A stretch of 64,000 nucleotides of DNA from Minisyncoccota bacterium (GTDB lineage Bacteria > Patescibacteriota > Minisyncoccia > Phycocordibacterales > UBA9973): the NCBI GenBank assembly GCA_041663005.1, contig JBAZRK010000001.1, positions 222,734 to 286,733 on the forward strand, written 5' to 3'. A program made the position numbers and the translations under genes. Shown piece after piece: positions 36,267 through 61,574 of this stretch. Position 1 is the stretch's first letter. Each line of letters starts with the position of its first letter. Below the pieces are notes generated by a model, which was not told where the DNA came from, searched no databases, and saw nothing but the letters and a program-made list of their open reading frames with translations.

Positions 36267-36332
36267 AAAAATTCTTGATTTGAGTATACCGAGCTCTTAA
36301 AAATTTTGCAATCAGGCAAGATAAAAAGGGGT

Positions 36333-36372
36333 CTTACGTCTCGATGATATGAGACTGCCCCTTAATTCTGTG
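36333..36372 (-). terminator. Putative terminator hairpin downstream of the GC-rich small ORF
   Basis: On the minus strand: ggggcagtctc ... gagac...cccc followed by ttttt. Confidence 0.3.
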
Positions 36373-36413
36373 ATGTGCTTGCCAATTACGCCGGCAGGCT
36401 TGGCGCAAAGAAC

Positions 36414-36656: not shown

Positions 36657-36807
36657 GCGCGCGTCTCCTTTTATTGAGATTTACTCCAAATGAACAATTT
36701 CATTTGTTAAAGATCAATGTCCGTGTAAAAGCAGAACCCAACCCTTCGCGAGTTATGGATGTTAAGGTAATTCCCATACCCTTCCTCTTGCACGCGCAAA
36801 AGGAAAA

Positions 36808-36838
36808 ACCGGCTTCGATTGCTCGAGAGCCGGTTTTT
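36808..36838. terminator. Bidirectional terminator hairpin downstream of the transaldolase gene
   Basis: aaaaa ccggct tcgattgctcgag agccgg ttttt. Confidence 0.5.
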
Positions 36839-36992
36839 AGGTTGTAAGTTTCTTTTTAGTGTTTACAGCGCAAAAATCAGCTCTCGAGCTTTGGTAAAGC
36901 TAAAAAAGAAAAAGCTGTTAATTTGTGCACTGTTTTTAATCACTAAAATATTATAGCCCATATTTACAATAACGCAATACCCCTGTGGAAAA

Positions 36993-44420: not shown

Positions 44421-45272
44421 TTACTTTCGGAATTTATAACCGATTAGTTTGAAGGCGAGCTTGGCTACGAGGAAATCATATGCGTGAAAACGTGGGATAG
44501 GGGCACATTCGGCAAAGTCGGCGCCAACTACATTTTTCTCGCGAGCTACCGCTTCGAAAATTTCCATCACCTGGTACCAAGTAAGCCCTCCGGGTTCTGG
44601 TGTACCTGTAGCGGGCATCACTGAAGAATCGAGCACATCCACATCAAAGGACAAATAAACATTTTTACCAAGCTGGCTTAAAATTTTCGGCAAGTCATAT
44701 TTATTTCCATAATTTACTTGTTCGTGATTTATATATTGCTGTTCCGAGAGAGCTGTGTTCCGAGTCCCAACCCATACAATATTCTTAATCCCCTGTTCCT
44801 GACATCGTCGCGCCGCGCAAGCATGAGACCATTTAGTGCCTCCCCATTCTTCGCGCATATCTGTGTGCGCATCAAAATACAAAATCGAAAGATCAGGGTA
44901 CTTTTCTTGATAAGCCTTCACAATTCCAGGAGTAAGAGAATGTTCGCCTCCTATACTTACGAGGAATTTATCGGTCCAGGGCTTTGCCGACGCATTTATC
45001 ATTTCTTGAATTTTTTCCAAATCTTCTTCGGGCTCCACGGGCACATATGGTAAGGTTGCTATTTTTACTTTTTCTATAAGCTCGTAGCCAAGCTCGTGGT
45101 CATAAATTTCCACTTGCTGAGAAGCTGTGATGATGCCCTTTGGACCGTTGCCAGTCCCCTTTCCGTAGCTCACGGTTTTCTCAAGTGGAATAGGCAAGAT
45201 TAAAGCATCCGCATCTTTGGGTAGTATTTCCGGTATTCCTAAAAAATTATCGGGTATATTTTCTTCGTTCAT
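44421..45272 (-). CDS. speB: Agmatinase/arginase-family ureohydrolase
   Basis: GGEHS, DAHTD and SFDVDVLD manganese-ligand motifs. Confidence 0.8.
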   Translation of the reverse strand: MNEENIPDNFLGIPEILPKDADALILPIPLEKTVSYGKGTGNGPKGIITASQQVEIYDHELGYELIEKVKIATLPYVPVEPEEDLEKIQEMINASAKPWTDKFLVSIGGEHSLTPGIVKAYQEKYPDLSILYFDAHTDMREEWGGTKWSHACAARRCQEQGIKNIVWVGTRNTALSEQQYINHEQVNYGNKYDLPKILSQLGKNVYLSFDVDVLDSSVMPATGTPEPGGLTWYQVMEIFEAVAREKNVVGADFAECAPIPRFHAYDFLVAKLAFKLIGYKFRK

Positions 45273-45863: not shown

Positions 45864-46937
45864 TTATATCCCCTCTTTTTTGAGCTCTTCTACTGTTTCG
45901 CGAGCTTTGCGAGAGAGCTTGGAAGGGAGTTTGATGTTTAGTTTGATTAGGAGGTCACCGCGTCTGGTCTTGCCTACAGGCACACCCTTGCCTCGAACTC
46001 GGAGAATTTCATTGATACTTACACCTTCGGGAATAGTGACTTCAATTTCGCCGTCTAAAGTTTTAATAGGGTATTTTGTACCGAGGAGCGCGTCGCTTAA
46101 TTTCAAATCTAGGTCCATCACTAAATCGTTGCCTTCCCTTTTGAAAACCGGGTGCGGAGCAACATTTATCTTAATGTATAAATCTCCTGCCGTACCGCGC
46201 GAAATAGCTTCCCCCATACCGGTCATTCGAATCATTTCTCCATCGCGGATGCCGGATGGAATAACGATTGAAACTTCCTCCTCTCGGCGCAAGACACCTT
46301 TGCCCTTGCACTGTTCGCAGACCTCTTTCGGAACCTCACCCGAGCCATAGCAAGCCTCGCAGATTTTAGTATTGGCGATAGTTCCAAAAATTGTTTTCTT
46401 GGCTTCACGGATATGCCCCTGTCCATTGCACTGTTTGCAGGTTTCCATTTTGGACCCTACCTTCGCGCCTGTCCCCTTGCAGACTAAGCAATTGGAAGTT
46501 TTGGTGATTAAAATTTTTCGATTGGTTCCGAAAACTGCATCCGAAAAAGAAATTTGAATTTCGGTTGAAATATCGCGTCCTCGGCGAGCAGCGTTTCGAT
46601 TCATTCCCCCAGAGAAGAAATCGCTGAAAATGTCGTTGAGGTCGAAGTCCATTCCGCCGTTCTGGAAACCACTGAAGTCGAACCCTCCGAAGCCTTGCGC
46701 CCCGCCGTAACCACCACCCCCCATATTTTCGTACCCGGAGCCAAATTGATCATACTTCGAACGCTTCTCTTCGTCAGAGAGAACCTGGTAGGCTTCATTC
46801 ACTTCTTTGAACTTCTGCTCGTTACCGCCCTTTTTATCAGGGTGATATTTGTGCGCCATTTTATAGAAGGCTTTTTTAACCTCTTCCTTGGTAGCGCCCT
46901 TATTTATACCTAAAATTTCATAGTAATCTTTTGCCAT
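45864..46937 (-). CDS. dnaJ: Chaperone DnaJ
   Basis: J domain [13 protein letters not shown] region, four CxxCxGxG repeats. Confidence 0.9.
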
Positions 46938-46977: not shown

Positions 46978-48492
46978 CTATATCATCGGCTCGGCTTCGT
47001 GCGAGTTCTTGGCTTGGTGATCCGACTCTACCTGGTCGTAGGCTTCGTCTTCGGCCGTGGCATTTTCCGTGCCGTGAGTGTGACTTTTTGCTTTTCTTTC
47101 AATAATTGCCTTCTCCTCGGCGCTACGGATTATAGTTGCTTCTTCTTGGGCTATGAGTCGCGCAGCGGCGTCCTTAGGAATTGAATACTTGCGACGTGAA
47201 GCGGCAATTATCTCTTCTTGATACGACGGATGCGTCGGTGGCAATACACGCAAGGTCTCCGCCGAGAATGGATCGTAGGACTCTCCGTCGATTGTCATTT
47301 TGATATAAAATTCGGTCACCGCCAAGTTAATCATATCTTTAACATCGAAAAGGGGCGCGAACTCCGGCTTCATTTTGACTGCGTCTTCACCACCGATACG
47401 GAAAGTAATGATGCTTCCGCAATTTCCGAGCACCGCTTGGTGCACGCGAGTAATAATTTGACCGACGTACTGGTGCGCTACGGTAAGATTTAATCCATAT
47501 TTGCGAGCCTCAGAGAGAATGTTCTCGAAGGTTTGAGTCACAACGTTCTGGAACTCGTCCACGTATAGGTAAAAGTCTGTGCGGGCGGATTCATCCATCG
47601 AAGCGCGCTCCATCCCCGCTTGTTTAATCTTTGTCAGGAAAATAGAACCCAAGAATGAAGAATTTTCTTCACCTAGGCGCCCCTTCGAAATGTTAATGAG
47701 AACAATTTTTTTCTCATTCATCAACTTCGAAATATCAATCTTATTTTCCTTTTGTCCGAAAATATTGCGGAGCAACGGGTCTGACAGGAATTGCCCCAGC
47801 TTGTTGACCAGAGGAATGATGGCGTCCGTATCGAACTTCTCAGACCAGTCGGCGAATTCAATAGCGAAGAATCTCTTCACCATATCATCCGTAATGTATT
47901 CCACGACTTTCTGCCGGTAATTCCTGTCTGTCAGCATCGAAATCATCCCGCGCATCGTGGCGTGCGGGTAGTCGAGCAAGGCAAGACAGGTAAAGCGGAA
48001 CACGTGCTCGAGCCTAGGCGTCCAGTTGGCGCCGAATTGTTTCTGGAACACCTCGATCAATCCTTGGGTTAAAATAAATTTGAAAGCGGGATCAACGTTC
48101 GCCAGAGGGTTGAAGGATGCCGGATAATCCTTGTCAGTCGGGTCTATGATGCAGACATCGTCGATGCGATTTTTCGGCACGAAGTCAAGAATATTTTTAA
48201 ATTCGTCGCCGTGCGGGTCGATGAAGCATAGCCCGTGTCCATAATTTATATCCTGTCGAACTAGAAGCTCCAAGAGCTTCGACTTCCCCACCCCGGATTT
48301 TCCAATGATGTAGAGGTGTCTGCGGCGGTCGACGCGCTTGATACCGAAAATAAACTTTTTCTCTTCGAGTGAAGCGACATAGTTCGTACGACCGATGAAA
48401 GAAACTTCCGAAGGGTCAACTTTGCCGAAAACAGGCAGCTCCGGAGGCGGAGGTCCGTATTTTATTATTTGAACTCGATTTGGCTTAGGCAT
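46978..48492 (-). CDS. FtsK/HerA/VirD4-superfamily P-loop ATPase (paralog 1, soluble)
   Basis: Walker A GKSGVGKS, Walker B FYLYVDEFQN, ARKYGLNLTVAHQY. Confidence 0.7.
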   Translation of the reverse strand: MPKPNRVQIIKYGPPPPELPVFGKVDPSEVSFIGRTNYVASLEEKKFIFGIKRVDRRRHLYIIGKSGVGKSKLLELLVRQDINYGHGLCFIDPHGDEFKNILDFVPKNRIDDVCIIDPTDKDYPASFNPLANVDPAFKFILTQGLIEVFQKQFGANWTPRLEHVFRFTCLALLDYPHATMRGMISMLTDRNYRQKVVEYITDDMVKRFFAIEFADWSEKFDTDAIIPLVNKLGQFLSDPLLRNIFGQKENKIDISKLMNEKKIVLINISKGRLGEENSSFLGSIFLTKIKQAGMERASMDESARTDFYLYVDEFQNVVTQTFENILSEARKYGLNLTVAHQYVGQIITRVHQAVLGNCGSIITFRIGGEDAVKMKPEFAPLFDVKDMINLAVTEFYIKMTIDGESYDPFSAETLRVLPPTHPSYQEEIIAASRRKYSIPKDAAARLIAQEEATIIRSAEEKAIIERKAKSHTHGTENATAEDEAYDQVESDHQAKNSHEAEPMI

Positions 48493-48653: not shown

Positions 48654-50378
48654 TTAGTAAACCTCTTGTTGGTAACAACGTTCACAATACACAATTTCCG
48701 GCCGCTCAGGCGCATAAGAAGTCTCAAATTCGACTTCACACTTCCCTTCGTGGTTAGGATGTTTTTTATCGCACATACATTCTCTGCGCCAAAGTCGGGG
48801 CGGATTGACCAACTTAAATCTCTCCTGGTGCCTGCATTCGAAACAGCTTCGGGGTACAGGTAAATTAAATTTTTTCAGGAATAAAAATTCGTTCTGGATA
48901 ATTTTATAGGGCCTTTTGCAAGTTTCACACTCAATGACATAATTGACTATATCATCACTTGTGTCGTGTATGTCCGGCGGTAAATCTTTCGTGGTGTGAG
49001 TTATGCGCTGCTCTGGTTGTTCACGTTCAATATAGTTGTACCCATTGCTTAAAATATCCGCTTTGGTCTGCGGAAAATAATCTTGCGCGATGGTCTCATT
49101 GTAGCCAAAAGGAGAAATATCAATAGGAAAATATTCGCCATATTTATAAATTCTTCCTTTTTTGTCTATATAGGGCATATCCTGCATATGCTTTATTATT
49201 TCTTCCCTGAGTTTTTCAAAATCGTCCTTGGAATATTCTTTGTTAAAAATGCAATAATTTTTATTGCGTAATCCGACACAGCCAAAAATATTATTGCACC
49301 CGTGGCAATTCAGGGAGTATTCCGCGTTCAGACATTCCCATATCGTCAATCCGAAAAGTTGCCGTGAGCCGTTTATGCCAGAATCCATTGCCTCGTATAG
49401 TAATTCTGTGCTGACCCCAACTCCATAGCCGTCGTAACTTGTATAAAGCCCGTGGACCGCATTGGTAGTAAATTTGCAGTCCTTTAGGTCTTCTGAGTCG
49501 AAACAATGATAAGAGTTTTTTGAATGAAGAATATTATCTCCTGAAACATTTGAAGAATTAAGAATGTTGGCAAACTTTCTCAAGCTTTTTAATCGGAGAC
49601 TTTCGAATTTTTTCTTGGCTTCTTTGAAACTCTCAAAATTCCCTATATTTAATTCGCTTAATTTTTTGAAATACTCGTCTTTTGTCAACTGCTCATTCCA
49701 CATGCAGTAAGATTTATTCCTGAGGTTGGTACAACCAAAACAATTTATGCAGTTTTTACAATCATATAAAAAGTAAGAACTGGTGCATGCTTCGGCGTTT
49801 TGTGAAAAGAAAGTTTCGTAACATTTCAAACTAGAAACATCTCCATAGGAAAACTGGCAATCTCTAGTAATAAACATGTCCATGGAGTCTTTGCAATTAT
49901 TGCACCGCGAGCCGTAAGTAACATTTTCGCCGTCCCAAGACGCGGAGACTAGATAAGCGTTCCTGAATTCACCTATATAATTACCGTATGAAGTATTGAC
50001 GCATTTCCCGATAAAAAGATTTGGATGCGGTACTTGCTCCATCAGGTCCCGAAATTGACCAAAAAATGGCTTAGAAAAGTCATACTCCCTTCCATATTCC
50101 GTAGGGTCCCACTGATCGCCCCACCAAATATCTCGTTCGTACACAATAAACGGAGAGTCGGCTGAAAAGCAACTTATGAGATTTTTCCCTGTCTTTCCGC
50201 ATTTATTGCGATGTAGCGTTCTTTCATTTCGCCAAGCCATCCTTCTTTGCATTCTACACTCCGGGCAAAATGTCGGCGGTGGGACCTTTATTTTTTCGTA
50301 AAAATTGAAATCCTCCGACTCGATTGTAAATTTACCGTTACAATTCTGACATATTACATTTTGTGATTTATACTCCAT
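48654..50378 (-). CDS. Cysteine-rich two-ribbon protein, subtype A, copy 1 (574 aa)
   Basis: N- and C-terminal CxxC-x~24-CxxCR zf-trcl-like ribbons (EDFNFYEKIKVPPPTFCPEC). Internal YDCKNCINCFGC..LRNKSYC repeats. Confidence 0.8.
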   Translation of the reverse strand: MEYKSQNVICQNCNGKFTIESEDFNFYEKIKVPPPTFCPECRMQRRMAWRNERTLHRNKCGKTGKNLISCFSADSPFIVYERDIWWGDQWDPTEYGREYDFSKPFFGQFRDLMEQVPHPNLFIGKCVNTSYGNYIGEFRNAYLVSASWDGENVTYGSRCNNCKDSMDMFITRDCQFSYGDVSSLKCYETFFSQNAEACTSSYFLYDCKNCINCFGCTNLRNKSYCMWNEQLTKDEYFKKLSELNIGNFESFKEAKKKFESLRLKSLRKFANILNSSNVSGDNILHSKNSYHCFDSEDLKDCKFTTNAVHGLYTSYDGYGVGVSTELLYEAMDSGINGSRQLFGLTIWECLNAEYSLNCHGCNNIFGCVGLRNKNYCIFNKEYSKDDFEKLREEIIKHMQDMPYIDKKGRIYKYGEYFPIDISPFGYNETIAQDYFPQTKADILSNGYNYIEREQPEQRITHTTKDLPPDIHDTSDDIVNYVIECETCKRPYKIIQNEFLFLKKFNLPVPRSCFECRHQERFKLVNPPRLWRRECMCDKKHPNHEGKCEVEFETSYAPERPEIVYCERCYQQEVY

Positions 50379-50385
50379 ATACTTT

Positions 50386-50658
50386 TTATTCTATAATTCT
50401 AACGAATTGTAGAATACTTTTCCCGCGCTTACTAAGCGTGTGCCGTACTATACTCCCTTCACTTCTCTTTTTTACTAGACCAGCGATGTACATTTTGTTT
50501 ATATGCGCAGAAATATTTTTAAAGTCCGAGTTTACGTCACTAGAAATTTCCTGAACTGATAAATTGGGTTTCTTGCCCAGTAGCTCAAGTATTTTCAACC
50601 TGTTGTGGTTCGCCACTCCCTTTAAAATCCTTTCTAGCTCTCGTTTTGACTTTTTCAT
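50386..50658 (-). CDS. ArsR/SmtB-family winged-helix transcriptional regulator
   Basis: VANHNRLKILELL recognition-helix region. 90 aa. Confidence 0.8.
   Translation of the reverse strand: MKKSKRELERILKGVANHNRLKILELLGKKPNLSVQEISSDVNSDFKNISAHINKMYIAGLVKKRSEGSIVRHTLSKRGKSILQFVRIIE
50389..50414. promoter_or_regulatory. Operator-like imperfect inverted repeat TTCTATAATTC-taac-GAATTGTAGAA, immediately upstream of the Cys-rich A1 start
   Basis: Near-duplicate of the arsR promoter palindrome. Overlaps the last codons of arsR. Confidence 0.4.
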
Positions 50659-50667
50659 AATTTATCT

Positions 50668-50693
50668 ATTCTATAATTCTATAGAATTGTAGA
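50668..50693. promoter_or_regulatory. 26-bp near-perfect palindrome TTCTATAATTCTA|TAGAATTGTAGAA in the arsR promoter region (candidate ArsR operator)
   Basis: 12 of 13 arm positions match. Located about 10-35 nt upstream of the arsR start codon. Confidence 0.5.
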
Positions 50694-50704: not shown

Positions 50705-52393
50705 TTAGTACACCTCTGCCTGATAACATTTCTCACAATATACTATCTCCGGACGTTCTGGAGCATAACCAGTTTTAATGGCTTTACTGCATTTAATGCA
50801 AGTACGGTCATACAAAAGCGGCGGGTTACGTAGGCTTAAACGTTCAGCGTGTCTACAGTTGGGACATAGACGAGGAAATGGTAAGCCCATACGTTTCAGA
50901 AAATCAAGCTCTGTTTTGATGGCCCGAAATGCACCAGTGCATTCGTGCTTACATGAATCTTTGTGTTCGCATCCAAAAACTTCATTTAGAATTTCTTGGT
51001 CAATGTCTTTTATGTCATCAGGTAAATCACCCGTTTTTAGGGTGATATCGTATTTCGGTTTCTCTATTCCATAATAAACAAAACCCTGTTTCTCCATCTC
51101 GTCTTTAGATAACGGGAAAAATTCCTGCGCGGCACTCACTTCGTATGGATGGGGCGCCAGGGCACTAGGGAAAAATTCACCGTATTCCCCTGTCATTTTC
51201 ATATGCTCAATTATTTTTGGTACCAAGGCCTCGTATTCTTCTTTGGTGTACTGTTTATTTAAAATACAATATTTTTTACCACGTAGTGAAATGCAACCAA
51301 AAAGGTATGCGGAACTTATACAAAATACGCAATAACTTGATTCTCGGAGCTCGGGGAAACAATGCGTGGAAAACTTTACATTGTATGCCCCAGTACCAAC
51401 AATGAGCGACTCATATATCAGCTCGGCATTGTTCCCAAAGTTGGAGTAGTCGTAACAATCTCTTACGGGACCATTTGTAACATTTTGGACCCACTTAGAA
51501 TCCTCCACCCCAACAACTCTATAGCAATCATGTGTATTTTTAGACTCATAAATATAGTCACCTGAAACATTTACGTTTTGTCGACTATGTATGAATTTTT
51601 GGGGATAGTTAAGCCAGTGTGCATATGCTTCGTGTTTTATTGTTTCAAAATTTTTATAAGAACCTAAATGTAATTCTTTTATTTTCTTTAAATATTCTTC
51701 GCGTTCATAAGGCTGGTTGAAAATATAATAAGATTTATTGCGCAAACCCACAGATCCAAAGCACGAATTGCAACCTACGCAATCTTTACAAAAAGTAAGC
51801 TCCTGAGAGCTTTCGCAGTCTACTGAGAAAAGAGTCTGGTAGCAAGTTATACAATTAACGTTGCCGTAAGAAAGCTCGCAGGAATTGGTCATATGACTTT
51901 CAAGTGACCCGCGAGAGCCGTGGTCCCAAATAAGATATGCGGAATCTTCTGTATTGGTAGCACCGCGCACGTAATAGCAGTTTTTGATATTGGTAGCGTT
52001 TGTGCAATAAGAGCAATGTACAGCTCTCTCCATAGATGTCGAAGGCCAGGGAACTTCATGCAAGAGTTCTTTAAATTGTTCAAAAAACGGGCGAGAGAAA
52101 TCAAACTCTCTACCGTATATCATTGGATCCCAACCATCCGAAAACCAGAAATCTCTATCGTAAATTTTTATTGGCGATTCTTCAGGAAGAAAAGAGAATA
52201 TTTTTTCTCCTGTACGAGCATCAGTCTTTTTAAAAACGTGCCAATCATTTCTCCATGTCATTCTACGTTGAAATCTGCACCGCGGACAAAATGTCGGCGG
52301 CGGAACTTGCATTTTTTCATAAAAATTAAAATCTTCGTTGGTTATTACGAAGTCTTTTTTGCAATTCTGGCAGGTTCTTGTTTCGGCTTTCAT
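50705..52393 (-). CDS. Cysteine-rich two-ribbon protein, subtype B, copy 1 (562 aa)
   Basis: Same architecture as above. N-terminus M.AETRTCQNCKKDF. CKDCVGCNSCFG repeat. Confidence 0.8.
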   Translation of the reverse strand: MKAETRTCQNCKKDFVITNEDFNFYEKMQVPPPTFCPRCRFQRRMTWRNDWHVFKKTDARTGEKIFSFLPEESPIKIYDRDFWFSDGWDPMIYGREFDFSRPFFEQFKELLHEVPWPSTSMERAVHCSYCTNATNIKNCYYVRGATNTEDSAYLIWDHGSRGSLESHMTNSCELSYGNVNCITCYQTLFSVDCESSQELTFCKDCVGCNSCFGSVGLRNKSYYIFNQPYEREEYLKKIKELHLGSYKNFETIKHEAYAHWLNYPQKFIHSRQNVNVSGDYIYESKNTHDCYRVVGVEDSKWVQNVTNGPVRDCYDYSNFGNNAELIYESLIVGTGAYNVKFSTHCFPELRESSYCVFCISSAYLFGCISLRGKKYCILNKQYTKEEYEALVPKIIEHMKMTGEYGEFFPSALAPHPYEVSAAQEFFPLSKDEMEKQGFVYYGIEKPKYDITLKTGDLPDDIKDIDQEILNEVFGCEHKDSCKHECTGAFRAIKTELDFLKRMGLPFPRLCPNCRHAERLSLRNPPLLYDRTCIKCSKAIKTGYAPERPEIVYCEKCYQAEVY

Positions 52394-52420: not shown

Positions 52421-54550
52421 TTATTCTAAGATTTTTCGGAGCACGTCTTCAGGAACTTCGGGCGCAGGCTTCGGCACAGGAGGAACTGGCACCTGGGAGC
52501 TCGCGCTAGGGACAGGAGCTTGCGGAGGCGCCACAGGAGGTGCTGGAGGTTTCGGTGGTGCCGGCGGCGGAACAATAGTTTTCTGAGATATAAGATTTTT
52601 AAGTTTATTCATTTCGTCAGGAGTTGCAGCGCGATCTTTGGAAGACCTCGGGTCCTGATTTACATCTCGCATTTTATTTTTCAAAACATCGAGGGAAATA
52701 GGAGCGGGCGTGGGTTTGGGTGCAGGCTGTGGTGTAGGAGAAACAGGCTTGGCCTGAGAGGCATCTTTGGTCATAACCTTAGAGAGCACGTCTTTGAGCG
52801 CTTGGTTGTCTCCGCTTCGCGGCTGTGGCCTTGGAGCCTGCGGTACATTGTTTCTTTCCTGCTTGATAGGCGGTTTTGGCGTAAAAACTTTCTTGACGTC
52901 ACTGACGACTCCGGGTTTGGCAACTGGGGCGTATGGCTTGTCTACACGTTCGGGGTGCCTGTCGTGAGTTTCTATTTTGCTTTCATCTGGCTTAAACTCT
53001 ATGCCTATGTCCGCCAGAGGTTGGAAAAATTCTGACTCATCGTGAATCGGTTCATCCTTTTGACCTTTCTCCACCTTAACCTCCCCAGACTTAATTTTTG
53101 CGATGCATTCCTTACAGTAAGCAGGGCGGCCAGGTTCTGGTTTAAATGGTACAGTGCGTTCTTGTTTACATAGTGAGCAGATTATTGGGAATTTTTCTCC
53201 GGTTGGTGACGGAGCGCTGTTTGGGACACTGTCGCCCAAGGACATCCCGCTCCAGTCGTTGATCTCACGCTCCACGATTTCCCTTGAACGACAGTAAAGT
53301 TCCCTAGAGGATTTGATAACTTCCTCTTCAATGTTTTTGTCCCCTCCCTTTACCATTGGCGGTAAGGTTTTCGCGGAAAAAGGTCGTGAGGTTATGCCGT
53401 CTATCATAAGCTTCATATAGACCTTGTAGTTCGGCAGGTTCACAATGTCCTGGGGAGTAAACTCAGGCTCGAATTCTTTTTCCAAAAATTCTGCATCGTC
53501 GGCACCAACCCTGAAAACAATCATAGTCCCTACGTTGCCGAACACCGCATCGCGGACAGCGGTACTCTTGTCGGAGATAAGCTGCGCGGTGTACTGGTGC
53601 GCCACCGTGAGGTTCAATCGGTATTTGCGGGCTTCGGAGAGAATCCCCGCGAAAGCGTCCGTCACGAAGTTTTGAAATTCGTCGACATATAGATAGAAGT
53701 CTCGTCGGCTTTCTTCCGGTATACGCACACGCTCCATCGCCGCAAGCTGAATCTTGGTAATTATCATACCTCCGAGCAGAGCGGAGTTGTCTTCCCCGAT
53801 TCTTCCTTTGGAAACGTTGACGAGGAAAATTTTCCCCTCGTTCATCATATCGAAAATATTTATTGTACTTTTCGATTGCCCCACGACGTTTCGAATTATC
53901 GAAGTTGAGAGAAACTGCCCGACTTTGTTCTGAATTGGGGCAATGGCTTCATTTCTGAATTTGTCTTGCCAAGCTTCGTATTCGTGAACCCAGAAAGCTT
54001 TAATCACCGGGTCTTTCAAATTTGAAATTATTTTCTGTCGATAGTCCTTGTCGACGAGCATTCTTGGAATTCCCAAAAGTGTCGTCCCCGGGGTGTCGAG
54101 CAAGGCGAGAATTGTATTGTTTAAAATGTATTCCATTCGGGCGCTCCAAGCATTGGCCCAAATTTTCGTAAAGATTCCCATAAGCCCGGACGCCACGAGG
54201 TGCTTGTACTGCGGGTCTACTAATTCCAAAACATTGAACCCTATGTGGTAGTCGGCATCAGCCGGATTGAAATAGATTACATCCTTCAAGCGATGGCGCG
54301 GGATAGCTCCGAGCACTGTCTCCACGTTTTCTCCGTGAGGGTCGACAAGGCAGACGCCTTCTCCGTTCTGGATGTTCTGGATAATCATATTGAACAATAG
54401 TACCGATTTACCGGTACCTGACTTCCCGAGAAGGTAAACGTGCTGACGCCTATCTTTGCGCTTAATACCAAAAAGCTGGTTTCTATCTCGGTAAGTGGTT
54501 AGCCCGATGTAGGTAACGTCTTTGTTTATAGGTATTTCCGCAATCTCCAT
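52421..54550 (-). CDS. FtsK/HerA/VirD4-superfamily P-loop ATPase (paralog 2) with a C-terminal zinc ribbon and Pro-rich tail. The start is re-set to the internal Met.
   Basis: Walker A GKSGTGKS, Walker B FYLYVDEFQN. CSLCK...RPAYCKEC ribbon. PAPPKPPAPP low-complexity tail. The track start at 54667 would read through the dnaK terminator. Confidence 0.7.
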   Translation of the reverse strand: MEIAEIPINKDVTYIGLTTYRDRNQLFGIKRKDRRQHVYLLGKSGTGKSVLLFNMIIQNIQNGEGVCLVDPHGENVETVLGAIPRHRLKDVIYFNPADADYHIGFNVLELVDPQYKHLVASGLMGIFTKIWANAWSARMEYILNNTILALLDTPGTTLLGIPRMLVDKDYRQKIISNLKDPVIKAFWVHEYEAWQDKFRNEAIAPIQNKVGQFLSTSIIRNVVGQSKSTINIFDMMNEGKIFLVNVSKGRIGEDNSALLGGMIITKIQLAAMERVRIPEESRRDFYLYVDEFQNFVTDAFAGILSEARKYRLNLTVAHQYTAQLISDKSTAVRDAVFGNVGTMIVFRVGADDAEFLEKEFEPEFTPQDIVNLPNYKVYMKLMIDGITSRPFSAKTLPPMVKGGDKNIEEEVIKSSRELYCRSREIVEREINDWSGMSLGDSVPNSAPSPTGEKFPIICSLCKQERTVPFKPEPGRPAYCKECIAKIKSGEVKVEKGQKDEPIHDESEFFQPLADIGIEFKPDESKIETHDRHPERVDKPYAPVAKPGVVSDVKKVFTPKPPIKQERNNVPQAPRPQPRSGDNQALKDVLSKVMTKDASQAKPVSPTPQPAPKPTPAPISLDVLKNKMRDVNQDPRSSKDRAATPDEMNKLKNLISQKTIVPPPAPPKPPAPPVAPPQAPVPSASSQVPVPPVPKPAPEVPEDVLRKILE

Positions 54551-54581
54551 TCCATTAATAATACCAGAAATACCACAAACT

Positions 54582-54606
54582 AAAAAGCCCCTTGCGGGGC
54601 TTTTTG
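54582..54606 (-). terminator. Intrinsic terminator immediately downstream of dnaK
   Basis: aaaaa gcccc ttgc ggggc ttttt, 3 nt after the dnaK stop codon. Confidence 0.7.
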
Positions 54607-54608
54607 AA

Positions 54609-56522
54609 TTACTTAGCTTCGTTCTGAGGAGGTTCCTCGCCTTCTTTCTTTTCCTTGAATTCCGCATCTTTGACTTCAGCGGGTTGTTCTTCGGGGGCTC
54701 CGGTTGGCGGAGTTTGAGCGCCAGCCTTGTTCATTGCCTCACCGATTTTGGACATTTCGGCAGACAATTCTTCGGTGGCCTTTTTGATAGCTTCGCCGTC
54801 TGTTCCATCTTTTACCCCACGAAGCGCAGTAATTTTCGCCTCCACTTCAGTTTTCAATTCTGCGGAAATTTTGTCTCCGGCGTCTTTCACCGCTTTTTCT
54901 GCTGTATAGATAATCATCTCGGCGGTGTTTTTCACTTCAGCATTTTCTTTCTTTTTCTTGTCTTCCTCGGCGTGCACTTCAGCGTCCGCTTGCATCTTTT
55001 TGATATCTTCTTCTTTGAGCCCGGAGCTTGCTTCAATTTTTATTGATTGAGTTTTACCTGAAGCCTTATCTTTCGCAGTAACATTCAATATTCCGTTGGC
55101 ATCCACATCGAATGACACCTCAATCTGCGGCATACCTCGAGGAGCTGGCGGAACACCGTCCAGGATAAATCGCCCGAGAGATTTGTTATCGCTTGCCATT
55201 GGGCGCTCTCCCTGCACAATGTGAATTTCTACAGAAGTCTGATTGTCGGCAGCTGTAGAGAAGGTCTGGGATTTACTGGACGGGATGGTGGTGTTTCTTT
55301 CCACTAATTTCGTAGCCACGCCTCCGAGAGTCTCAATTCCCAGAGAAAGCGGAATAACGTCGAGGAGGAGAACATCGCGTACATCTCCTTGCAAAACTCC
55401 GGCTTGCACCGCAGCACCAAGAGCGACGACTTCGTCAGGGTTAATGGTTAGGTTAGGAGCTTTGCCAAATACTTTTTTCACTTCTTCTACAATCTTCGGC
55501 ATCCTGGTCTGACCTCCGACCATCACTATTTCATTCATATCTTCCATCTTGAATCCAGAGGCAGCCATAGCTCGCTTGGTAATTTCGATAGAGCGAGTAA
55601 CGTATTCATCTGCTAGGGATTCTAACTGCGCCCGAGTCATCTTGAGCAATAAGTGCTGAGGACCTTCTGCTGTAGAAGTGATAAATGGAATGTTGATTTC
55701 GGATTCTATTGCAGTAGAGAGCTCAATTTTTGCTTTTTCTGCTGCTTCGTCTAAGCGTTGCAATGCGAGCTTGTCTCCGCGCACGTCCACTCCGGAAGTT
55801 TTCTTAAATTCTTCGGCAATCCAGTTAATTATCTTGTGGTCAATATCTCGTCCGCCCATATGGCTGTCTCCGTCTGTAGACTTAACTTCGATGACATCAT
55901 CTCCGATTTCGAGCACAGACACGTCGAATGTTCCGCCTCCGAAGTCGTAGACCACTATTTTCTCATTTTTCTTTTTATTAAATCCGTAAGCGAGGGCCGC
56001 CGCTGTAGGCTCGTTGATAATTCTTTTTACATCGAGTCCGGCAATTGCACCTGCGTCTTTCGTTGCCTTTCTTTGGGCATCGTTAAAGTATGCGGGAACA
56101 GTGATGACAGCTTCAGTAATTTTCTCGCCGAGTTTTGTTTCGACGTCAGTTTTAATTTTAGAAAGAATCATCGCCGACACTTCTTCCGGTCGCATCCACT
56201 TATCACCGATTTTTACTTCCACTCCGCCGTTGGCAGATTTTTGAATTTTGAAAGATGCATTCTTTAAATCTTTCTGCACTTCAGGATCTTCAAAATTGTG
56301 ACCCATAAAGCGCTTGATGCCGTACACTGTATTTTCCGGATTGGTCACCGCCTGCCTTTTCGCAAGTAAGCCTACAAGCCTGTCTCCATTTTTAGCAACG
56401 GCTACTACCGAAGGAGTCGTGCGGTTCCCTTCTACGTTTTCAATAATTTTCGGCACACCGCCCTCTATGACGGCTACCGCAGAATTTGTCGTACCCAAGT
56501 CTATTCCTATGATTTTTGACAT
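54609..56522 (-). CDS. dnaK: Chaperone DnaK (Hsp70)
   Basis: [32 protein letters not shown]. Confidence 0.95.
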
Positions 56523-56580
56523 AATTTTATTTTGTTAAAACTTATAATTAATTTTTTAATAGTATATACCATCCAAATTA

Positions 56581-56620
56581 AATTAGCAAGCTCTTCGCGG
56601 TCGCGAAATGGTTGCTAATT
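56581..56620. promoter_or_regulatory. Nested inverted repeat AATTAGCAA-gctc-TTCGCG-gt-CGCGAA-atgg-TTGCTAATT. The arms supply the -35 TTGCTA of both divergent promoters (dnaK and the PaaX-like gene).
   Basis: Read directly. 17-nt spacers lead to TATACT (dnaK side, minus strand) and TATAAT (plus side). The outer arms resemble CIRCE half-sites (TTAGCA/TGCTAA) but the spacing is non-canonical. Confidence 0.5.
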
Positions 56621-56646
56621 CTTAATATATATTATATAATACAGGT

Positions 56647-57168
56647 ATGTCAAGGAAAAAGGACTACTCGGGCAAAATAATCAAAATTTTAGGCAAAAAA
56701 CCGGCTACTTCTGTCGAAGAAATTTGGACTGGTTTCCCTGACCAGAATCGATATTCTGTAACTAGATCATTAAAGGGCCTTCGTGAGGCAGGTCTCATTG
56801 AGGCTCTTTCCTCCGCTCATTGTGAATATGCACGCCTCACAAAAGAAGGAAAAAAGAAAATGCATAGTCTAATTCTCGAGAGTAATACTGGCCTGGTGAA
56901 CACTTCCTGGGACGGATTTTGGAGGATAATTTTGCTCGACCTTCCAGAAGAAAGAAAAAGCGAGCGCGAAAGTCTGCGCTACCTACTAAAAAAAGCTGGC
57001 TTCGTCTGCCTAAAGAATTCTGCCTGGATCTCCCCTTTCCCATACGAGCATCTCTTCACAAATATTAAAAAAGATTTAGGCCTGACGACAGAAATGATGA
57101 TTATGGTCACCGACAAAATCGACGAAGAATCTAAAAAGGTTTTATTTCAAACCTTCGGGCAAAGTTAA
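56647..57168 (+). CDS. PaaX-like transcriptional regulator (wHTH plus PaaX_C-like domain)
   Basis: C-terminal WDGFW...LPEER...LRYLL.KAGF..L.NSAWISPFP matches the PaaX C-domain pattern (recalled from memory). Confidence 0.55.
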   Translation: MSRKKDYSGKIIKILGKKPATSVEEIWTGFPDQNRYSVTRSLKGLREAGLIEALSSAHCEYARLTKEGKKKMHSLILESNTGLVNTSWDGFWRIILLDLPEERKSERESLRYLLKKAGFVCLKNSAWISPFPYEHLFTNIKKDLGLTTEMMIMVTDKIDEESKKVLFQTFGQS

Positions 57169-57206
57169 TCTCCTTACATATGTAAGGATAGGTGTAAGGA
57201 GATTAA
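57166..57206. terminator. Convergent-gene hairpin: perfect 14-bp inverted repeat TTAATCTCCTTACA ... TGTAAGGAGATTAA, with an inner CCTTACAtaTGTAAGG palindrome
   Basis: Lies between the PaaX-like stop and the Cys-rich A2 stop. Confidence 0.45.
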
Positions 57207-58888
57207 TACACCTCTTTGTTGTAGCAACTTTCGCAATAAACTTTCTCCGGTCGCTCTGGAGAGTAGGGTGTTTCAAATTCATTCTGGCAACCTGAATTCA
57301 TACATTGTCTGTGCCAAAGCTTAAGTGGGTTCTTTTTACGTACACGTTCGCCGTGACGACAAAATGGACATAATGTGGGTAGTGGTAAATTAAATTTTTT
57401 ATAGAAGTTGTATTCAAATAGTGTAATCTTAAACGCCCTCGGGCAGTTGTCATCACACTTACCTCCATGTCCACACTCTATTACCTGTTCGAGGATTCCT
57501 AGGTCTGGTAAAATGTCGGGAATTGCAGAATTTTTTAATGTAATATCGTAATTTTTCTCCTCCAAAACTGCCCAATTGAAACCTTCTGCTCCAGCCCTTT
57601 CGGAATCAAGCGGAAAGTAGTCTTGGGCTTGAGTCTCGTTATATCCAAAAGGAGAATATTTCGCGGGGAAAAATTCTCCGTATTCTCCCAATTTCAGCAT
57701 CTGGTCGACTATCTCTTTTCGTAGTTTTAAGTAGTCTTCTTTCGAATATTGCTTATTGAAAATGCAGTAAGACTTATTGCGGAGACCTATGCACCCAAAA
57801 ATATTGTTACAGTCAAAACAATTATACGAATATTCAATATCGAAACCTCCCCATATGAGCGAAGAGAAATTTACTCGCTGGGCCTCAACACTGTGGGTGT
57901 CATAACAAAGCTCTGCGCCATCCCAAGCAATGGTCCCATCATAAATATCCTTACAGTTGCCCCACACCCTAAAGGAGTAGCGCACATTTTCTGAATCTCT
58001 CACATAAAAACCCTGATTTACAAAGCGTGCGTTCAGCACATCATCCCCTATCGCTTTTTCAGCCTTAGTAATCACCGCGTATTTCCTGGGAACTTTTAAC
58101 TTTAACTCTTCGAATTTTTCCTGGGTATTACTTAGTCCTGCGCGAGAATTCAATTTGAGTTCTTCTAATTTTTTAAAATATTCTTCCTTGGAGTATTGTT
58201 CGTTAAAAATACAGTAAGACTGACTGCGCAAACCTACACACCCAATACAATTGTTGCAATTACGACAGTCATATAAGTAATAAGAATCGACACACCCTTC
58301 GCAGTTCTGACTAAAAAATAAATTGTAGGATTTAACGCAATCAATTAGTTCGTAACAATACTCGGCAAAATTAGAACCATATAAATCAACAGAAAACTTG
58401 GTGTCCGTAACCGCACCAAACACATAAGACGAGTCCTCCACGCGCACAAAGCCCGCCGACCAATAAACATTCTTGGCATCGGTGCAATAGTTGGTATATT
58501 CACTATTTACGCCATTACGAGTTACGACATTCGGATGCGGTACCGCTTTTAAAAGTTCGTCGAATTGCTCGAAGAATGGACGTGTAAAATCATATTCACG
58601 ACCGAAAGACATAGGGTCCCACGCATCACTACGGAAATAGGCCTGTTCATAAACTTTATACGGAGCATCAGGTCGAAAAATAGAGAGCATTGGCTTGCCC
58701 GTGGCATCACACACCCGCCTGTGCCAGCTGCGCTCATTGCGCCAAGCCATACGTCTCTTCATCCTGCATTCAAAACAAAACGTCGGCGGTGGAACTTTTA
58801 TTTTTTCATAGAAACTAAAATCTTCACTTTCTATGGTGAAATCTTTTTTACAGTTTTGGCAGATTTTGTTTTCGTTTTTATATTCCAT
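57203..58888 (-). CDS. Cysteine-rich two-ribbon protein, subtype A, copy 2 (561 aa)
   Basis: N-terminus MEYKNENKICQNCKKDFTIESEDFSFYEKIKVPPPTFC, near-identical to copy A1. YDCRNCNNCIGC repeat. Confidence 0.8.
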   Translation of the reverse strand: MEYKNENKICQNCKKDFTIESEDFSFYEKIKVPPPTFCFECRMKRRMAWRNERSWHRRVCDATGKPMLSIFRPDAPYKVYEQAYFRSDAWDPMSFGREYDFTRPFFEQFDELLKAVPHPNVVTRNGVNSEYTNYCTDAKNVYWSAGFVRVEDSSYVFGAVTDTKFSVDLYGSNFAEYCYELIDCVKSYNLFFSQNCEGCVDSYYLYDCRNCNNCIGCVGLRSQSYCIFNEQYSKEEYFKKLEELKLNSRAGLSNTQEKFEELKLKVPRKYAVITKAEKAIGDDVLNARFVNQGFYVRDSENVRYSFRVWGNCKDIYDGTIAWDGAELCYDTHSVEAQRVNFSSLIWGGFDIEYSYNCFDCNNIFGCIGLRNKSYCIFNKQYSKEDYLKLRKEIVDQMLKLGEYGEFFPAKYSPFGYNETQAQDYFPLDSERAGAEGFNWAVLEEKNYDITLKNSAIPDILPDLGILEQVIECGHGGKCDDNCPRAFKITLFEYNFYKKFNLPLPTLCPFCRHGERVRKKNPLKLWHRQCMNSGCQNEFETPYSPERPEKVYCESCYNKEVY

Positions 58889-58894
58889 ATTTTA

Positions 58895-58916
58895 GATCTA
58901 CGCTATAGCGTAGATC
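58895..58916. promoter_or_regulatory. Perfect 22-bp palindrome GATCTACGCTATAGCGTAGATC, ending 6 nt upstream of the A2 start codon
   Basis: Read directly and verified to be its own reverse complement. Confidence 0.45.
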
Positions 58917-58921
58917 GATTT

Positions 58922-60619
58922 TTAATACACTTCTTTGTTGTAGCAACTTTCGCAATAAACTTTCTCCGGCCGCTCTGGAGAATATGGAGTTTCAAATTCG
59001 TTAGGGCATTTTGCGGCATGGCCGTGAGCTTCGACTGCACATTTGCAATTACTATGCCAAAGACGGCGCGGCGGACGCAAACCAAATCTCCTTCTGTATC
59101 TGCAGTTCGGGCACTTTCGCGGTATTGGAATTTTCTCTTTTTGATAAAACAAAAACTCGTTTCGGGTAATATTGTAATTTTTTGAACATTCTACGCAAGC
59201 TAAAATTTCGTTCAGAATGGTTTCCGGCACATCTTCTATTTTATCAGGAATTTTTTCGCTCGTGATAGTTTCCTTGCCCAAAGTACCGCCCAAGTTTTCT
59301 TCCCAATGCCAACCTTTGGCTAAAACTTCGTTTTTTGTCATTGGCTCATACATATTGCCCTGCGTTTCGTTGTAGTAAATAGGCGCAATTTGAGGTGGAA
59401 AAAATTCGCCATATTCCCCTGTTCTCTTCATATGCTCAATGATTTTTTCTTTTAGCGCCAGATAGTCTGCTTTAGAATATTTTTTATTAAAAATCATGTA
59501 TTCGCCCTTTTTCACACTCACGCAACCAAAAAGATTCTGGCTATTTTGGCAAGTGTCGGAATAATCAATATTCATGTTGTCGTAAGATAAATGGCAAAAA
59601 TGGCAATTGGAAATACGAGCACTCCCCTGACACTCGTAGCTCAATTCAACATGGTCGCCCACGTGATATAAATCCATAGAATCCTTTACCCCATCCGGAC
59701 TGCAGATAAGAAATTTAGAATTCTCCCCCATTAGTGTCTCAAATGATAATGCCACGTTCCTGCAGTCAAAAATCATGCTACCTATAGAGTTAATATTTCT
59801 TTCACTTACAGTGTAACGGTGTACGGCCTCTTCCCGCATAATCTTTTCAAATTCTTTCTCTAGGCCTTGGCGTACCGTAAACGAAGAGAGATCGTATTCT
59901 TTTATCTTTTTTAAATATTCTTCCCGAGTATACTGTTTATTGCGGAATACATAACTTTTGCCCCGGAGGTTTGTAGACATAAAGCAATTATTACATCCGC
60001 GACAATCGAAACAGTAAAAACAAGAAGAGCAATCTTTTATGAATTTCCCATACTGACATTCATAAGAAATACGAGAGTCCGTAACTTCGTACAATCTTTC
60101 TCCTTTCTCGTAAATGTAGCTGCAATCTATTAAATCTCGCGAGTTCCAAATTAATGTGCTGTATAACGCATTCTCGTTGTAGAAGGCAGAAAAGGTGAGG
60201 TAAACATTTTTATTATCACTCGAATGATTGGTATATTCAGAATTTTCACTATTTTTATTTAGGAGTGCCATGCGGGGTACGTCATGCTGGAGTTCGGCAA
60301 ACTGTTCAAAAAATGGGCGAGAAAAATCAAAATCGCGGCCGTAAGAAGTCGCATCCCAGCCATCGCCCCACCAGCACGAATTGCAATACACTTTATAGGG
60401 CTTATTTTGGGAATAAATCGTCACCGTACTCTTGCCGCACAAGTCGCACGACCTACGGTATAAATTGCGTTCGTTCCTCCACGCATAACGCCGCAACTGC
60501 CGACAGCCTGGACACCAAGTCGGCGGTGGGACTTTAATCTTCTCATAAAAATTAAAGTCTTCACTATCAATCGTGAAATCTTGTTTACAGTTTTGACAAT
60601 TTCTGGTTTCTGGTCTCAT
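58922..60619 (-). CDS. Cysteine-rich two-ribbon protein, subtype B, copy 2 (565 aa)
   Basis: N-terminus MRPETRNCQNCKQDF. CFYCFDCRGCNNC repeat. The C-terminal 28 aa are identical to copy A2. Confidence 0.8.
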   Translation of the reverse strand: MRPETRNCQNCKQDFTIDSEDFNFYEKIKVPPPTWCPGCRQLRRYAWRNERNLYRRSCDLCGKSTVTIYSQNKPYKVYCNSCWWGDGWDATSYGRDFDFSRPFFEQFAELQHDVPRMALLNKNSENSEYTNHSSDNKNVYLTFSAFYNENALYSTLIWNSRDLIDCSYIYEKGERLYEVTDSRISYECQYGKFIKDCSSCFYCFDCRGCNNCFMSTNLRGKSYVFRNKQYTREEYLKKIKEYDLSSFTVRQGLEKEFEKIMREEAVHRYTVSERNINSIGSMIFDCRNVALSFETLMGENSKFLICSPDGVKDSMDLYHVGDHVELSYECQGSARISNCHFCHLSYDNMNIDYSDTCQNSQNLFGCVSVKKGEYMIFNKKYSKADYLALKEKIIEHMKRTGEYGEFFPPQIAPIYYNETQGNMYEPMTKNEVLAKGWHWEENLGGTLGKETITSEKIPDKIEDVPETILNEILACVECSKNYNITRNEFLFYQKEKIPIPRKCPNCRYRRRFGLRPPRRLWHSNCKCAVEAHGHAAKCPNEFETPYSPERPEKVYCESCYNKEVY

Positions 60620-60688: not shown

Positions 60689-60973
60689 TTATAAAGAGTT
60701 ATCCACATCGCTGTTTTTATTGTGAAAAAACCGGAATGGCATATTATCCACCAGAATGGGGTTATCAGAAAATAGCCTGCGAAGAGCTGAAACTCCTTTT
60801 CTAAATTTACCAAATACGGAAAAAGCAAAATGCTGCTTAACGCGACATCCAAAGCATTGCTCCGGGATTTTCAATCCTACTTTTTCATACAAAAGTAAAT
60901 CGCCAGAATCTATTATAAATTCTTCTTTACAATCAGCGCAAATTTTACTCTCCGTTTTTGAATTCATAGACAT
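60689..60973 (-). CDS. Stand-alone single zf-trcl-like zinc-ribbon protein (~90 aa). A miniature relative of the Cys-rich family.
   Basis: CADCKEEFIIDSGDLLLYEKVGLKIPEQCFGCR. Its start region overlaps the grpE 3' end. Confidence 0.5.
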   Translation of the reverse strand: MSMNSKTESKICADCKEEFIIDSGDLLLYEKVGLKIPEQCFGCRVKQHFAFSVFGKFRKGVSALRRLFSDNPILVDNMPFRFFHNKNSDVDNSL

Positions 60974-61535
60974 TCACCCGAGCGGCACGCATTACGCGCT
61001 CACCGAGCTTATAGCCTTTCTGCACAACTTCGGCAACTTTATGGTCAAGGTCTTTCTGGTCCGTGGCCACCATATCTATAGACTGGTGAATGTTGGGGTC
61101 GAAAGCTTCACCCTCTTCACCTATCGGCTTCACGCCATATTCCTCGAATATGCCATTCATTTGCGCATAAATATACTCCACGCCCTTGCGCCAAGTAGCG
61201 TCAACTTTCTCCCAGGCCTCCTTGTTGGCGAAAGCCATATTGAAACTGTCTATAACCGTCAGGAAACGAGTAAGTATTCGCTCGCGCATCGCTTCGGAAA
61301 AGACGCCCTTGCGGTCATCTTCCTGCTTTTTATAGTTGGCAAAGTCGGCCCGCTCTTTCTGCCAGCCTGTTAGATACTCTTCTTTCTCTTTTTTGGCTTG
61401 TTTTAGGTCAGCGCGAAGCTTTTTGAGGGTTTTTTTCACGTCTTCTTCGCCGTCGTCATTAAATTCAAACTCGACAACATCATCTTCCGCCTCAGGCTCT
61501 TCTTTTTTCTTATCTTCATCGTTCATATGGCTCAT
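60945..61535 (-). CDS. grpE: Nucleotide exchange factor GrpE. The start is re-set to the ATG downstream of the terminator.
   Basis: GrpE coiled-coil and beta domain (NPQDAV-like HQSIDMV). The track's TTG start at 61562 lies inside the terminator hairpin. Confidence 0.85.
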   Translation of the reverse strand: MSHMNDEDKKKEEPEAEDDVVEFEFNDDGEEDVKKTLKKLRADLKQAKKEKEEYLTGWQKERADFANYKKQEDDRKGVFSEAMRERILTRFLTVIDSFNMAFANKEAWEKVDATWRKGVEYIYAQMNGIFEEYGVKPIGEEGEAFDPNIHQSIDMVATDQKDLDHKVAEVVQKGYKLGERVMRAARVNVYEFKNGE

Positions 61536-61543
61536 ATTAGCAT

Positions 61544-61574
61544 AAAAAAATCCCTCTTCCAAGAGGGATTTTTT
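61544..61574. terminator. Bidirectional intrinsic terminator between rpsI and grpE
   Basis: aaaaaaa tccctctt cc aagaggga tttttt. Confidence 0.7.

Follow-up and report, generated by a model that had tools for sequence, protein, structure and literature searches.

A conserved palindrome between dnaK and a divergent PaaX-like gene in Paceibacteria, a putative operator and promoter hub

Two systems in which a regulator is paired with an inverted repeat at dnaK stand closest to the one considered here: HrcA with its CIRCE element, TTAGCACTC-N9-GAGTGCTAA, and HspR with its HAIR element, CTTGAGT-N7-ACTCAAG, known from Streptomyces, Helicobacter and Deinococcus. HspR belongs to the MerR family, and its gene stands last in the dnaK operon. 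A third point of reference is PaaX, the regulator of the phenylacetate catabolon of E. coli and Pseudomonas, for which the box motif TGATTC-N27-GAATCG has been given (PMC9493321). Here we describe the gap between dnaK and a divergent gene for a short PaaX-like protein in a 64,000-nt stretch of contig JBAZRK010000001.1 (the window). The host belongs to the Paceibacterota, within the Candidate Phyla Radiation (CPR), and a 'Candidatus Paceibacterota' metagenome-assembled genome encodes a protein with 100% identity to the regulator. The gap is 124 nt long and holds an inverted repeat, the inner palindrome of which is most likely, judging from its conservation, a protein-binding operator and promoter hub kept within the Paceibacteria class of the Patescibacteria, including 'Nomurabacteria'. 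To our knowledge almost nothing is known of gene regulation in the CPR, whose members are largely uncultured, and among the papers searched we found none linking PaaX-like proteins to Patescibacteria or to chaperone genes.

The nested inverted repeat and its conserved core

The gap separates dnaK (54609-56522, minus strand; 637 aa, Pfam HSP70 at 2.5e-244) from the regulator gene (56647-57168, plus strand; 173 aa, Pfam PaaX_M at 1.1e-19). The putative core operator, TTCGCG-gt-CGCGAA, occupies 56594-56607, with TTCGCG at 56594-56599 and CGCGAA at 56602-56607. It is flanked by two outer arms, AATTAGCAA at 56581-56589 and TTGCTAATT at 56612-56620, which match each other at 9/9 positions; the 4-nt stretches that separate the inner from the outer arms (gctc on the left, atgg on the right) are unpaired. 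The window contains a single instance of the pattern TTAGCAA-N(10-34)-TTGCTAA, where chance alone would give 0.01. A preliminary description of this DNA, made from its letters, had proposed such a nested repeat with arms about 22 nt apart instead of the 9 of CIRCE, and both the repeat, which is real and unique in the window, and its spacing were borne out.

For comparison we used 80 loci from species-representative genomes, each with a homologue of the regulator 54-77% identical to it; with the window these make 81 loci, individually cited below by L numbers. The homologue has dnaK divergently upstream in 78/80 related species, the other two loci stopping at a contig edge, and the dnaK genes so placed encode proteins 71-96% identical to DnaK of the window. 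A 22-nt position weight matrix, built from the conserved block of the anchored intergenic alignment, finds one strong site (score 16-34) in each of the 80 loci and 0 in shuffled sequence. In the window, its single credible site is the dnaK/PaaX-like gap; a match at 31172 was discarded, lying as it does inside a coding region and scoring 14 as against the 16-34 of true sites.

From the operator towards the regulator gene, the conserved blocks run TTTCGYG-RY-CRCGAAA, AtACTTGT(C/A)(A/T)AA, (A/G)GTATATAT(G/T)ATA, TAnnAT, about 6 nt, and ATGTCAAG. The first is the family consensus of the inner palindrome, in which several columns are invariant or nearly so. Conservation is highest there and in CTTGT of the right arm, which is itself invariant or nearly so in the 81 loci. 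The left half-site reads TTCGYG in 54 loci, and the right one CRCGAA in 40 and an asymmetric CACTAA in 14; the two central letters are AC in 40 loci and GT in 36. The outer pair TTAGCAA...TTGCTAA, by contrast with the inner palindrome, is present in only 3 of the 81 (the window, L001 and L031), so that the alignment of relatives' dnaK upstream regions proposed in the preliminary description returned the inner palindrome in 80/80 and the outer pair in 2/80. Since the outer pair is so rare and the conservation peak lies inside it, the deeply conserved element is, on this alignment, the inner palindrome, and the CIRCE-like letters are best read as a local variant of -35 boxes.

The spacing of the operator differs on its two sides. 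The distance from its centre to ATGTCAA, the start of the regulator gene, is 45-46 nt in about 70/81 loci; the distance to dnaK varies between 35 nt and 2 kb, unrelated genes having been inserted there.

Three predicted promoters around the operator

The right outer arm contains TTGCTA (56612-56617), which would serve as the -35 box of the regulator promoter: a -10 box, TATAAT (56635-56640, plus strand), follows after 17 nt and ends 6 nt before the ATG at 56647. The predicted transcript start is the A of this ATG, and no Shine-Dalgarno motif is present, an arrangement (TTGCTA-17-TATAAT-6-ATG) that fits a leaderless sigma-70-type layout with a predicted 5' end. In relatives, TAnnAT stands 6-7 nt before ATGTCAA, often with TGn in front, and is preceded at a 17-nt spacer by TTGTCA, TTGTAT or TTGCTA; TGn is found where the -35 box is weak. 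That the gene is leaderless, as had been suggested earlier, is supported by this geometry, including the nearly fixed operator-ATG distance, and by the genome at large. Shine-Dalgarno-like motifs precede only 2/51 genes of the genome, and in many genes the ATG is preceded at 6-9 nt by a (TGn)TAnnAT box, as upstream of 17026-18081(-), 24672-25100(-), 40130-40750(+), 44421-45272(-) and 60945-61526(-). Given this scarcity of Shine-Dalgarno motifs and the -10 boxes so near to ATG, leaderless mRNAs look like the rule here, and may be the norm in the lineage and no peculiarity of the PaaX-like gene.

On the other side, the minus strand of the left outer arm holds TTGCTA (56589-56584), the predicted -35 box of a proximal dnaK promoter, P2, with a -10 box TATACT at 56561-56566 (minus strand), a 17-nt spacer and a predicted start near 56554. 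Both outward-facing sites, TTGCTA 17 nt from a -10 box, had been noted from the sequence before and were found again by the promoter scan. P2 is the left mirror image of the regulator promoter, with TTGCWA or TTGTCA, 16-17 nt and TATAAT, and a block ATTATATAC that matches its -10 box is kept where relatives have the long architecture. Of the 81 loci, 43 show a ..CAAG left arm, usually with TATAAT 16-17 nt off; the other loci have short intergenic regions of 87-110 nt without P2.

A predicted distal dnaK promoter, P1, is both stronger and more widespread. Its predicted -35 box, TTGACA (56648-56653, minus strand), is the opposite strand of ATGTCAA, codons 1-3 of the PaaX-like gene, and its -10 box, TATATT (56624-56629, minus strand), follows after an 18-nt spacer; the promoter scan scores it at 11/12 positions. 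The predicted start falls near 56616-56617, which puts the operator centre at about +17 and gives dnaK a leader of about 95 nt. The same promoter, TTGACA-17/18-TATACT or TATATT, matches at 11-12 of 12 positions in 71/81 loci and at 10 or more in 75/81. The dnaK promoter of the preliminary description corresponds to P2, which is kept in about half of the relatives, whereas the near-universal P1 had been overlooked.

Several features indicate that the first codons of the regulator gene are held by more than their coding function. GTCAA is retained in 75/81 loci. The Ser2 codon is TCA in 69/69 cases, although TCA accounts for 12% of Ser codons in the remainder of these genes, and codon 3 alternates between Ser (AGC/AGT) and Arg (AGA/AGG) with AG constant. 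GTCAAG has been kept despite loss of the ATG in L073 (TAGTCAAG) and L079 (GAGTCAAG), and GTCAA in L034 and L047, where a hairpin insertion has moved the real start 45-120 nt downstream. Because Ser2 is always TCA, AG is fixed in codon 3 and GTCAA outlives the ATG, TGTCAA is, by these sequence criteria, under selection at the nucleotide level, as the -35 DNA of the predicted P1.

Relative to both the regulator promoter and P2, the operator centre lies at -46.5. With respect to predicted P1, but not to predicted P2, the operator stands downstream of the start site and ahead of the dnaK start codon. Since P1 overlaps the regulator promoter on the other strand, simultaneous occupation of the two by polymerase is not expected.

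We also observed short GC-rich hairpin insertions (CCCGAT...ATCGGG, CCCCG...CGGGG) within the AT-rich regulatory DNA of relatives. They are found in the dnaK leader in L007, L012, L014, L020, L031 and L035 and just past ATGTCAA in L019, L034 and L047, and some of them give the otherwise leaderless regulator gene a leader with an AGGA-like motif. In appearance they are small elements of a mobile or terminator-like kind.

The PaaX-like protein and its putative operator

The 173-aa protein consists of a winged helix-turn-helix and a Cas2-like middle domain; the C-terminal domain of PaaX is absent, and Pfam gives PaaX_M only. Against TIGR02277, the PaaX equivalog, it scores 30.9 bits (cut-off 264.55) and covers profile positions 34-142 of 279. 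An AF2 model (pLDDT 76.6) has a secondary structure that fits a winged helix plus a Cas2-like domain, and its top Foldseek matches in the PDB are E. coli PaaX (8a39, E 4.8e-4), followed by 3kfw (Rv0674) and 3l09; single domains retrieved ArsR/MarR winged helices and Cas2. An hhalign comparison with E. coli PaaX is weak (E 0.0095), with the WDGxW motif aligned. By its modelled fold and middle domain the regulator is thus a member of the PaaX superfamily and not a PaaX orthologue. It has more than 2000 homologues, the best 120 of the list being 70-100% identical; at 50% identity, the family forms 19 clusters at E 1e-30 (the dnaK-linked orthologue group), 898 at E 1e-10 and 3201 at E 1e-3.

This protein is the sole transcription factor conserved at the locus. 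An ArsR-like gene at 50386-50658, considered as an alternative source of the binder, was dropped since it is absent from relatives. The half-sites of the operator provide a further link to PaaX. The E. coli K-12 promoter Pa (read from NC_000913.3) contains AATGTGATTCGTGTTtttaattaattCACGAAAACTGGAATCG, that is AATGTGATTCGTGTT...CACGAAAACTGGAATCG, which is TGATTC-N27-GAATCG with TTCGTG-N13-CACGAA nested inside, and the reverse complement of Pz from the same sequence reads TTTATGATTCGCGAT. The hexamer TTCGYG is common to the CPR operator and the boxes of both E. coli promoters; the TGA prefix and the spacing differ. A 15-nt PaaX consensus, WWTRTGATTCGYGWT, likewise fits the Pa and Pz boxes. In the sub-clade of L052, L057 and L062, where dnaJ has its own promoter, an operator-like palindrome lies 5 nt upstream of a TTGAAA -35 box. 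Among the metagenome matches listed for the pattern ATTTCGYGRYCRCGAAATNNNNH, a few were low-GC, non-coding and CPR-like, and at least three of these (L114, L145 and L162) adjoin PaaX_M proteins 25-34% identical to ours, L162 with the layout of the window (operator, TTGTGT, 16 nt, TGtTAAAAT, 8 nt, ATG). Synteny, fixed geometry and the likeness of the half-sites thus support the PaaX-like protein as the best candidate for the single regulator that the preliminary description had imagined at this site.

The proposed mechanism starts from what the sequences and the model show, namely synteny, conservation, geometry and fold, and adds to it by inference a binding event, a sign of regulation and a signal. 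A dimer of the 173-aa protein would bind the inner 14-16 bp palindrome, TTTCGYG-RY-CRCGAAA, 46 nt from which it is encoded, and the outer arms would act as -35 hexamers of two outward sigma-70-type promoters, not as CIRCE arms. When occupied, the operator would block P1 at about +17 and cover the -35 boxes on both sides, those of P2 where present and of the regulator promoter, so that dnaK and the regulator gene are both held down; when the protein leaves the DNA, dnaK would be released. The trigger might be heat, or titration by unfolded proteins or by DnaK, by analogy with RheA, HrcA and HspR. Phenylacetyl-CoA cannot be the inducer, because the ligand domain is absent. We consider it probable, with a good deal of room for doubt, that a dimer of the protein sits on the core palindrome, and that it both represses dnaK and restricts synthesis of the regulator itself.

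Some observations weigh against this repression model. The position of the operator at -46.5 from the regulator promoter and P2 would suit an activator as well. In the window, the weight matrix finds no operator upstream of grpE or dnaJ, so that a broad heat-shock regulon would be hypothetical. The matches listed from the metagenome scan were mostly chance occurrences in infC coding sequence (FRGREM). Finally, the same phylum contains a second PaaX_M subfamily of about 190 aa, often annotated as 'Cas2', with copies of a long palindrome both upstream and downstream of its genes. The arms of these palindromes are lineage-specific and their cores GCGGTCGC-like or GCTATAGC-like (L162 at 8352-8373 and 9027-9048; L203-L206); the downstream copy stands in front of ksgA/rsmA, an rRNA dimethyltransferase gene, in L114 and L205. 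The PaaX_M family as a whole appears to consist of autoregulators binding palindromes, and since the second subfamily partly shares the core, the identity of the binder here rests mainly on adjacency, and paralogues may cross-talk.

The most serious competitor, in our estimation an unlikely but real one, is that the PaaX-like protein does bind but only regulates its own gene, or activates from -46.5, with dnaK constitutive or activated rather than repressed. It would account for the operator distance being fixed to the regulator gene and not to dnaK, for a centre at the classical activator position of the regulator promoter and P2, for paralogues that have a palindrome beside their own genes with dnaK not nearby, and for the bare grpE and dnaJ of the window. 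It sits poorly with the retention of dnaK as neighbour in 78/80 species, the site at the dnaJ promoters of three relatives, and the near-universal P1, relative to which the operator takes a repressor position at about +17; PaaX, where characterised, is a repressor (PMC9493321). Far less credit is due to the idea that the palindrome acts mainly as RNA, as a thermometer, stability element or attenuator hairpin in the P1-derived dnaK leader, which we regard as improbable. If P1 is used, the whole palindrome does lie in the roughly 95-nt leader, which folds at -20.3 kcal/mol (z = -3.5), as any palindrome would; a simple scan marks a terminator-like stem at 56597-56615, and the loci of paralogues carry long perfect palindromes whose arms differ between lineages. 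But among the 81 aligned sites there are no compensatory changes: covariation of the 15-pair stem is 0.135 as against a shuffled mean of 0.156, paired cells make up 77.3% as against 78.9% in shuffles, and at the one variable pair the letters of the two sides are combined independently (CG 19, UA 18, UG 18, unpaired 24). CACTAA-type half-sites would break the stem, and a hairpin 70-90 nt from the dnaK start codon leaves that codon unmasked. In Rfam the intergenic region matches no family, nor does any part of the whole window reach a gathering score. The half-sites, moreover, are identical in sequence to PaaX boxes, which favours recognition by a protein. Because covariation between the arms is absent, Y and R combine independently and asymmetric CACTAA occurs, a protein operator fits and a hairpin does not; a dimeric DNA-binding protein with two half-sites, each conserved separately, would be expected to leave this pattern, and with 81 sequences free of covariation we rejected a hairpin as the main function.

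The two remaining explanations concern the outer arms. The preliminary description had offered a diverged CIRCE element as one possibility, and its binding by HrcA would be in keeping with TTAGCA and TGCTAA within the outer arms, with a place upstream of dnaK and, relative to P1, with a position between start site and start codon, as for CIRCE in Bacillus. Against it, CIRCE has no match in the window at up to 3 mismatches and is not matched exactly in any of the 80 loci, the arms are separated by 22 nt, not 9, the outer pair is as rare as described above, and the conserved core, TTCGYG-N2-CRCGAA, is unrelated to CIRCE. As had been said earlier of the window, hrcA was not found among the ORFs (open reading frames) examined there, and a weak tblastn search with a B. 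subtilis HrcA query gave no match in the window or the loci. The conservation pattern thus largely refutes the CIRCE explanation, to which we give only a very slight chance. Nor do other heat-shock elements apply: HAIR-like matches number 2, with 2.6 expected, and neither is near dnaK, while the CtsR heptad repeat, RGTCAAA-NAN-RGTCAAA, has no match at up to 2 mismatches. Least probable of all, to the point of being negligible, is that the palindrome is a by-product of two back-to-back -35 boxes with nothing bound. Both outer arms do coincide with -35 hexamers, but the most conserved bases are those of the inner palindrome between them, kept even in loci that lack the left promoter, and the same core recurs at dnaJ and beside paralogous regulators.

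Gene neighbourhood and comparison with known systems

Seen more widely, the locus amounts to a minus-strand grpE-dnaK-dnaJ region that has been expanded, with the gene order rplM, rpsI, grpE, two zinc-ribbon paralogues, the PaaX-like gene on the opposite strand, dnaK, a TrwB/HerA-like ATPase, more zinc-ribbon paralogues, the ArsR-like gene, a second ATPase and dnaJ. The grpE gene (60945-61526, minus strand; found by tblastn, Pfam GrpE at 7.2e-36) has its own extended -10 promoter (TGCTAATAT) behind a clean rpsI terminator hairpin at 61543-61571. A plus-strand ORF of 205 aa at 60756-61373, which choosing the longest ORF had favoured, is spurious, the real gene being grpE on the minus strand. 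The dnaJ gene (45864-46937, minus strand) was assigned from its ORF translation. Searches by tblastn with E. coli queries gave no match to groEL, groES or clpB in the window or the loci, and found grpE only. No paa genes were found in the window or the 80 loci, where dnaK, grpE and genes for zinc-ribbon and ribosomal proteins make up the neighbourhood.

Directly downstream of dnaK, at 52421-54667 (minus strand), is a gene for a TrwB/TraD/HerA-like P-loop ATPase of 748 aa that carries a treble-clef zinc finger; the called ORFs overlap. At least 43 related species have the protein at 72-93% identity, matching the conservation of DnaK, which suggests a conserved functional partner in the dnaK operon. 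A paralogous ATPase of 504 aa is encoded at 46978-48492, just upstream of dnaJ. The zinc-ribbon genes of the window comprise four paralogues of 561-574 aa (48654-50378, 50705-52393, 57203-58888 and 58922-60619, all on the minus strand) and a fragment near 60840-60940. Their zinc-ribbon ends are conserved, with an N-terminal motif CQNCKKDFTIESEDFNFYEKIKVPPPTFCPECR and a C-terminal ...YCESCYNKEVY, and they have no Pfam or NCBIfam match. Homologues stand beside the PaaX-like gene in about 42 relatives; in the window the copies are interleaved with chaperone genes.

Other palindromes are present in the window. A perfect one, GATCTACGCTATAGCGTAGATC (about 58889-58918), lies upstream of the 561-aa zinc-ribbon gene, another, AATTCTATAGAATT, upstream of the ArsR-like gene, and a related TAGAATTATAGAATA upstream of the 574-aa gene (the latter two at about 50660-50688 and 50380-50408, respectively). 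Their GCTATAGC-type core resembles that of the palindromes flanking the second PaaX_M subfamily in other Paceibacteria (L203, L205). In L056, L059, L074 and L075, a small conserved ORF between dnaK and dnaJ encodes a very basic peptide, MNKKRKIAAKKK(A/R)K(R/A)DGK.V.LRH.... Two intervals of 600-700 nt in the window, 26140-26770 and 36270-36990, contain only implausible ORFs; Rfam gave nothing there at gathering score, and neither a tRNA nor a tmRNA was called. Degraded sequence is one possible explanation, RNA genes so far unrecognised another. No tRNAs were found in the window.

The putative regulator-operator pair has been defined from sequence and is kept in at least 80 species, and the 173-aa protein with 40 bp of DNA would suffice for a direct test. 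If the protein is indeed a repressor, it would add a new family to the few bacterial heat-shock regulators, and a ligand-sensing PaaX scaffold would have been cut down and reused. A -35 box within the first codons of a divergent gene would represent regulatory compaction in very small genomes. The palindrome probably points to an undescribed way of controlling the main heat-shock chaperone. A wider proposal, which we put forward tentatively and rate at somewhat under an even chance, is that in Paceibacteria a truncated PaaX-type family without ligand domain controls the main Hsp70 in place of HrcA, HspR or sigma-32, by binding TTTCGYG-N2-CRCGAAA, and that the leaderless start codon of the regulator doubles as the -35 box of dnaK, making the promoters mutually exclusive.

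With PaaX, the regulator shares an N-terminal winged helix and a Cas2-like domain (PaaX_M; 8a39) and, as proposed here, autoregulation from a site beside its own gene; Pa, too, is a nested inverted repeat. It differs in its length of 173 aa, compared with about 316, and in being without the C-terminal phenylacetyl-CoA-binding domain, in half-sites 2 nt apart where those of E. coli are 13 apart, and in having dnaK and not paa genes as its neighbour. The resemblance to HrcA-CIRCE lies in a palindromic operator at dnaK, situated after the predicted P1 start and before the start codon, and in presumed negative control of a chaperone gene; however, the sequence and spacing of the operator are not those of CIRCE, the regulator is of another protein family, and hrcA was not seen. 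HspR-HAIR is alike in the physical linkage of the regulator gene with dnaK, in probable autoregulation by way of an inverted repeat, and in feedback through DnaK, plausible as a signal here as well; but the present regulator is PaaX-like and divergent from dnaK, and the HAIR sequence is not at the locus. As in other overlapping divergent sigma-70 promoters, two or three promoters share a short intergenic region and one palindrome, and polymerases on the two strands would compete, whereas here the -35 box is the start and first codons of a divergent leaderless gene, kept across dozens of species. Because CIRCE and HAIR, the defining sequences, were searched for and are absent from the site, and because the protein family differs, the pair at dnaK would work like HrcA-CIRCE or HspR-HAIR while being a member of neither, with a layout of overlapping promoters that appears unusual.

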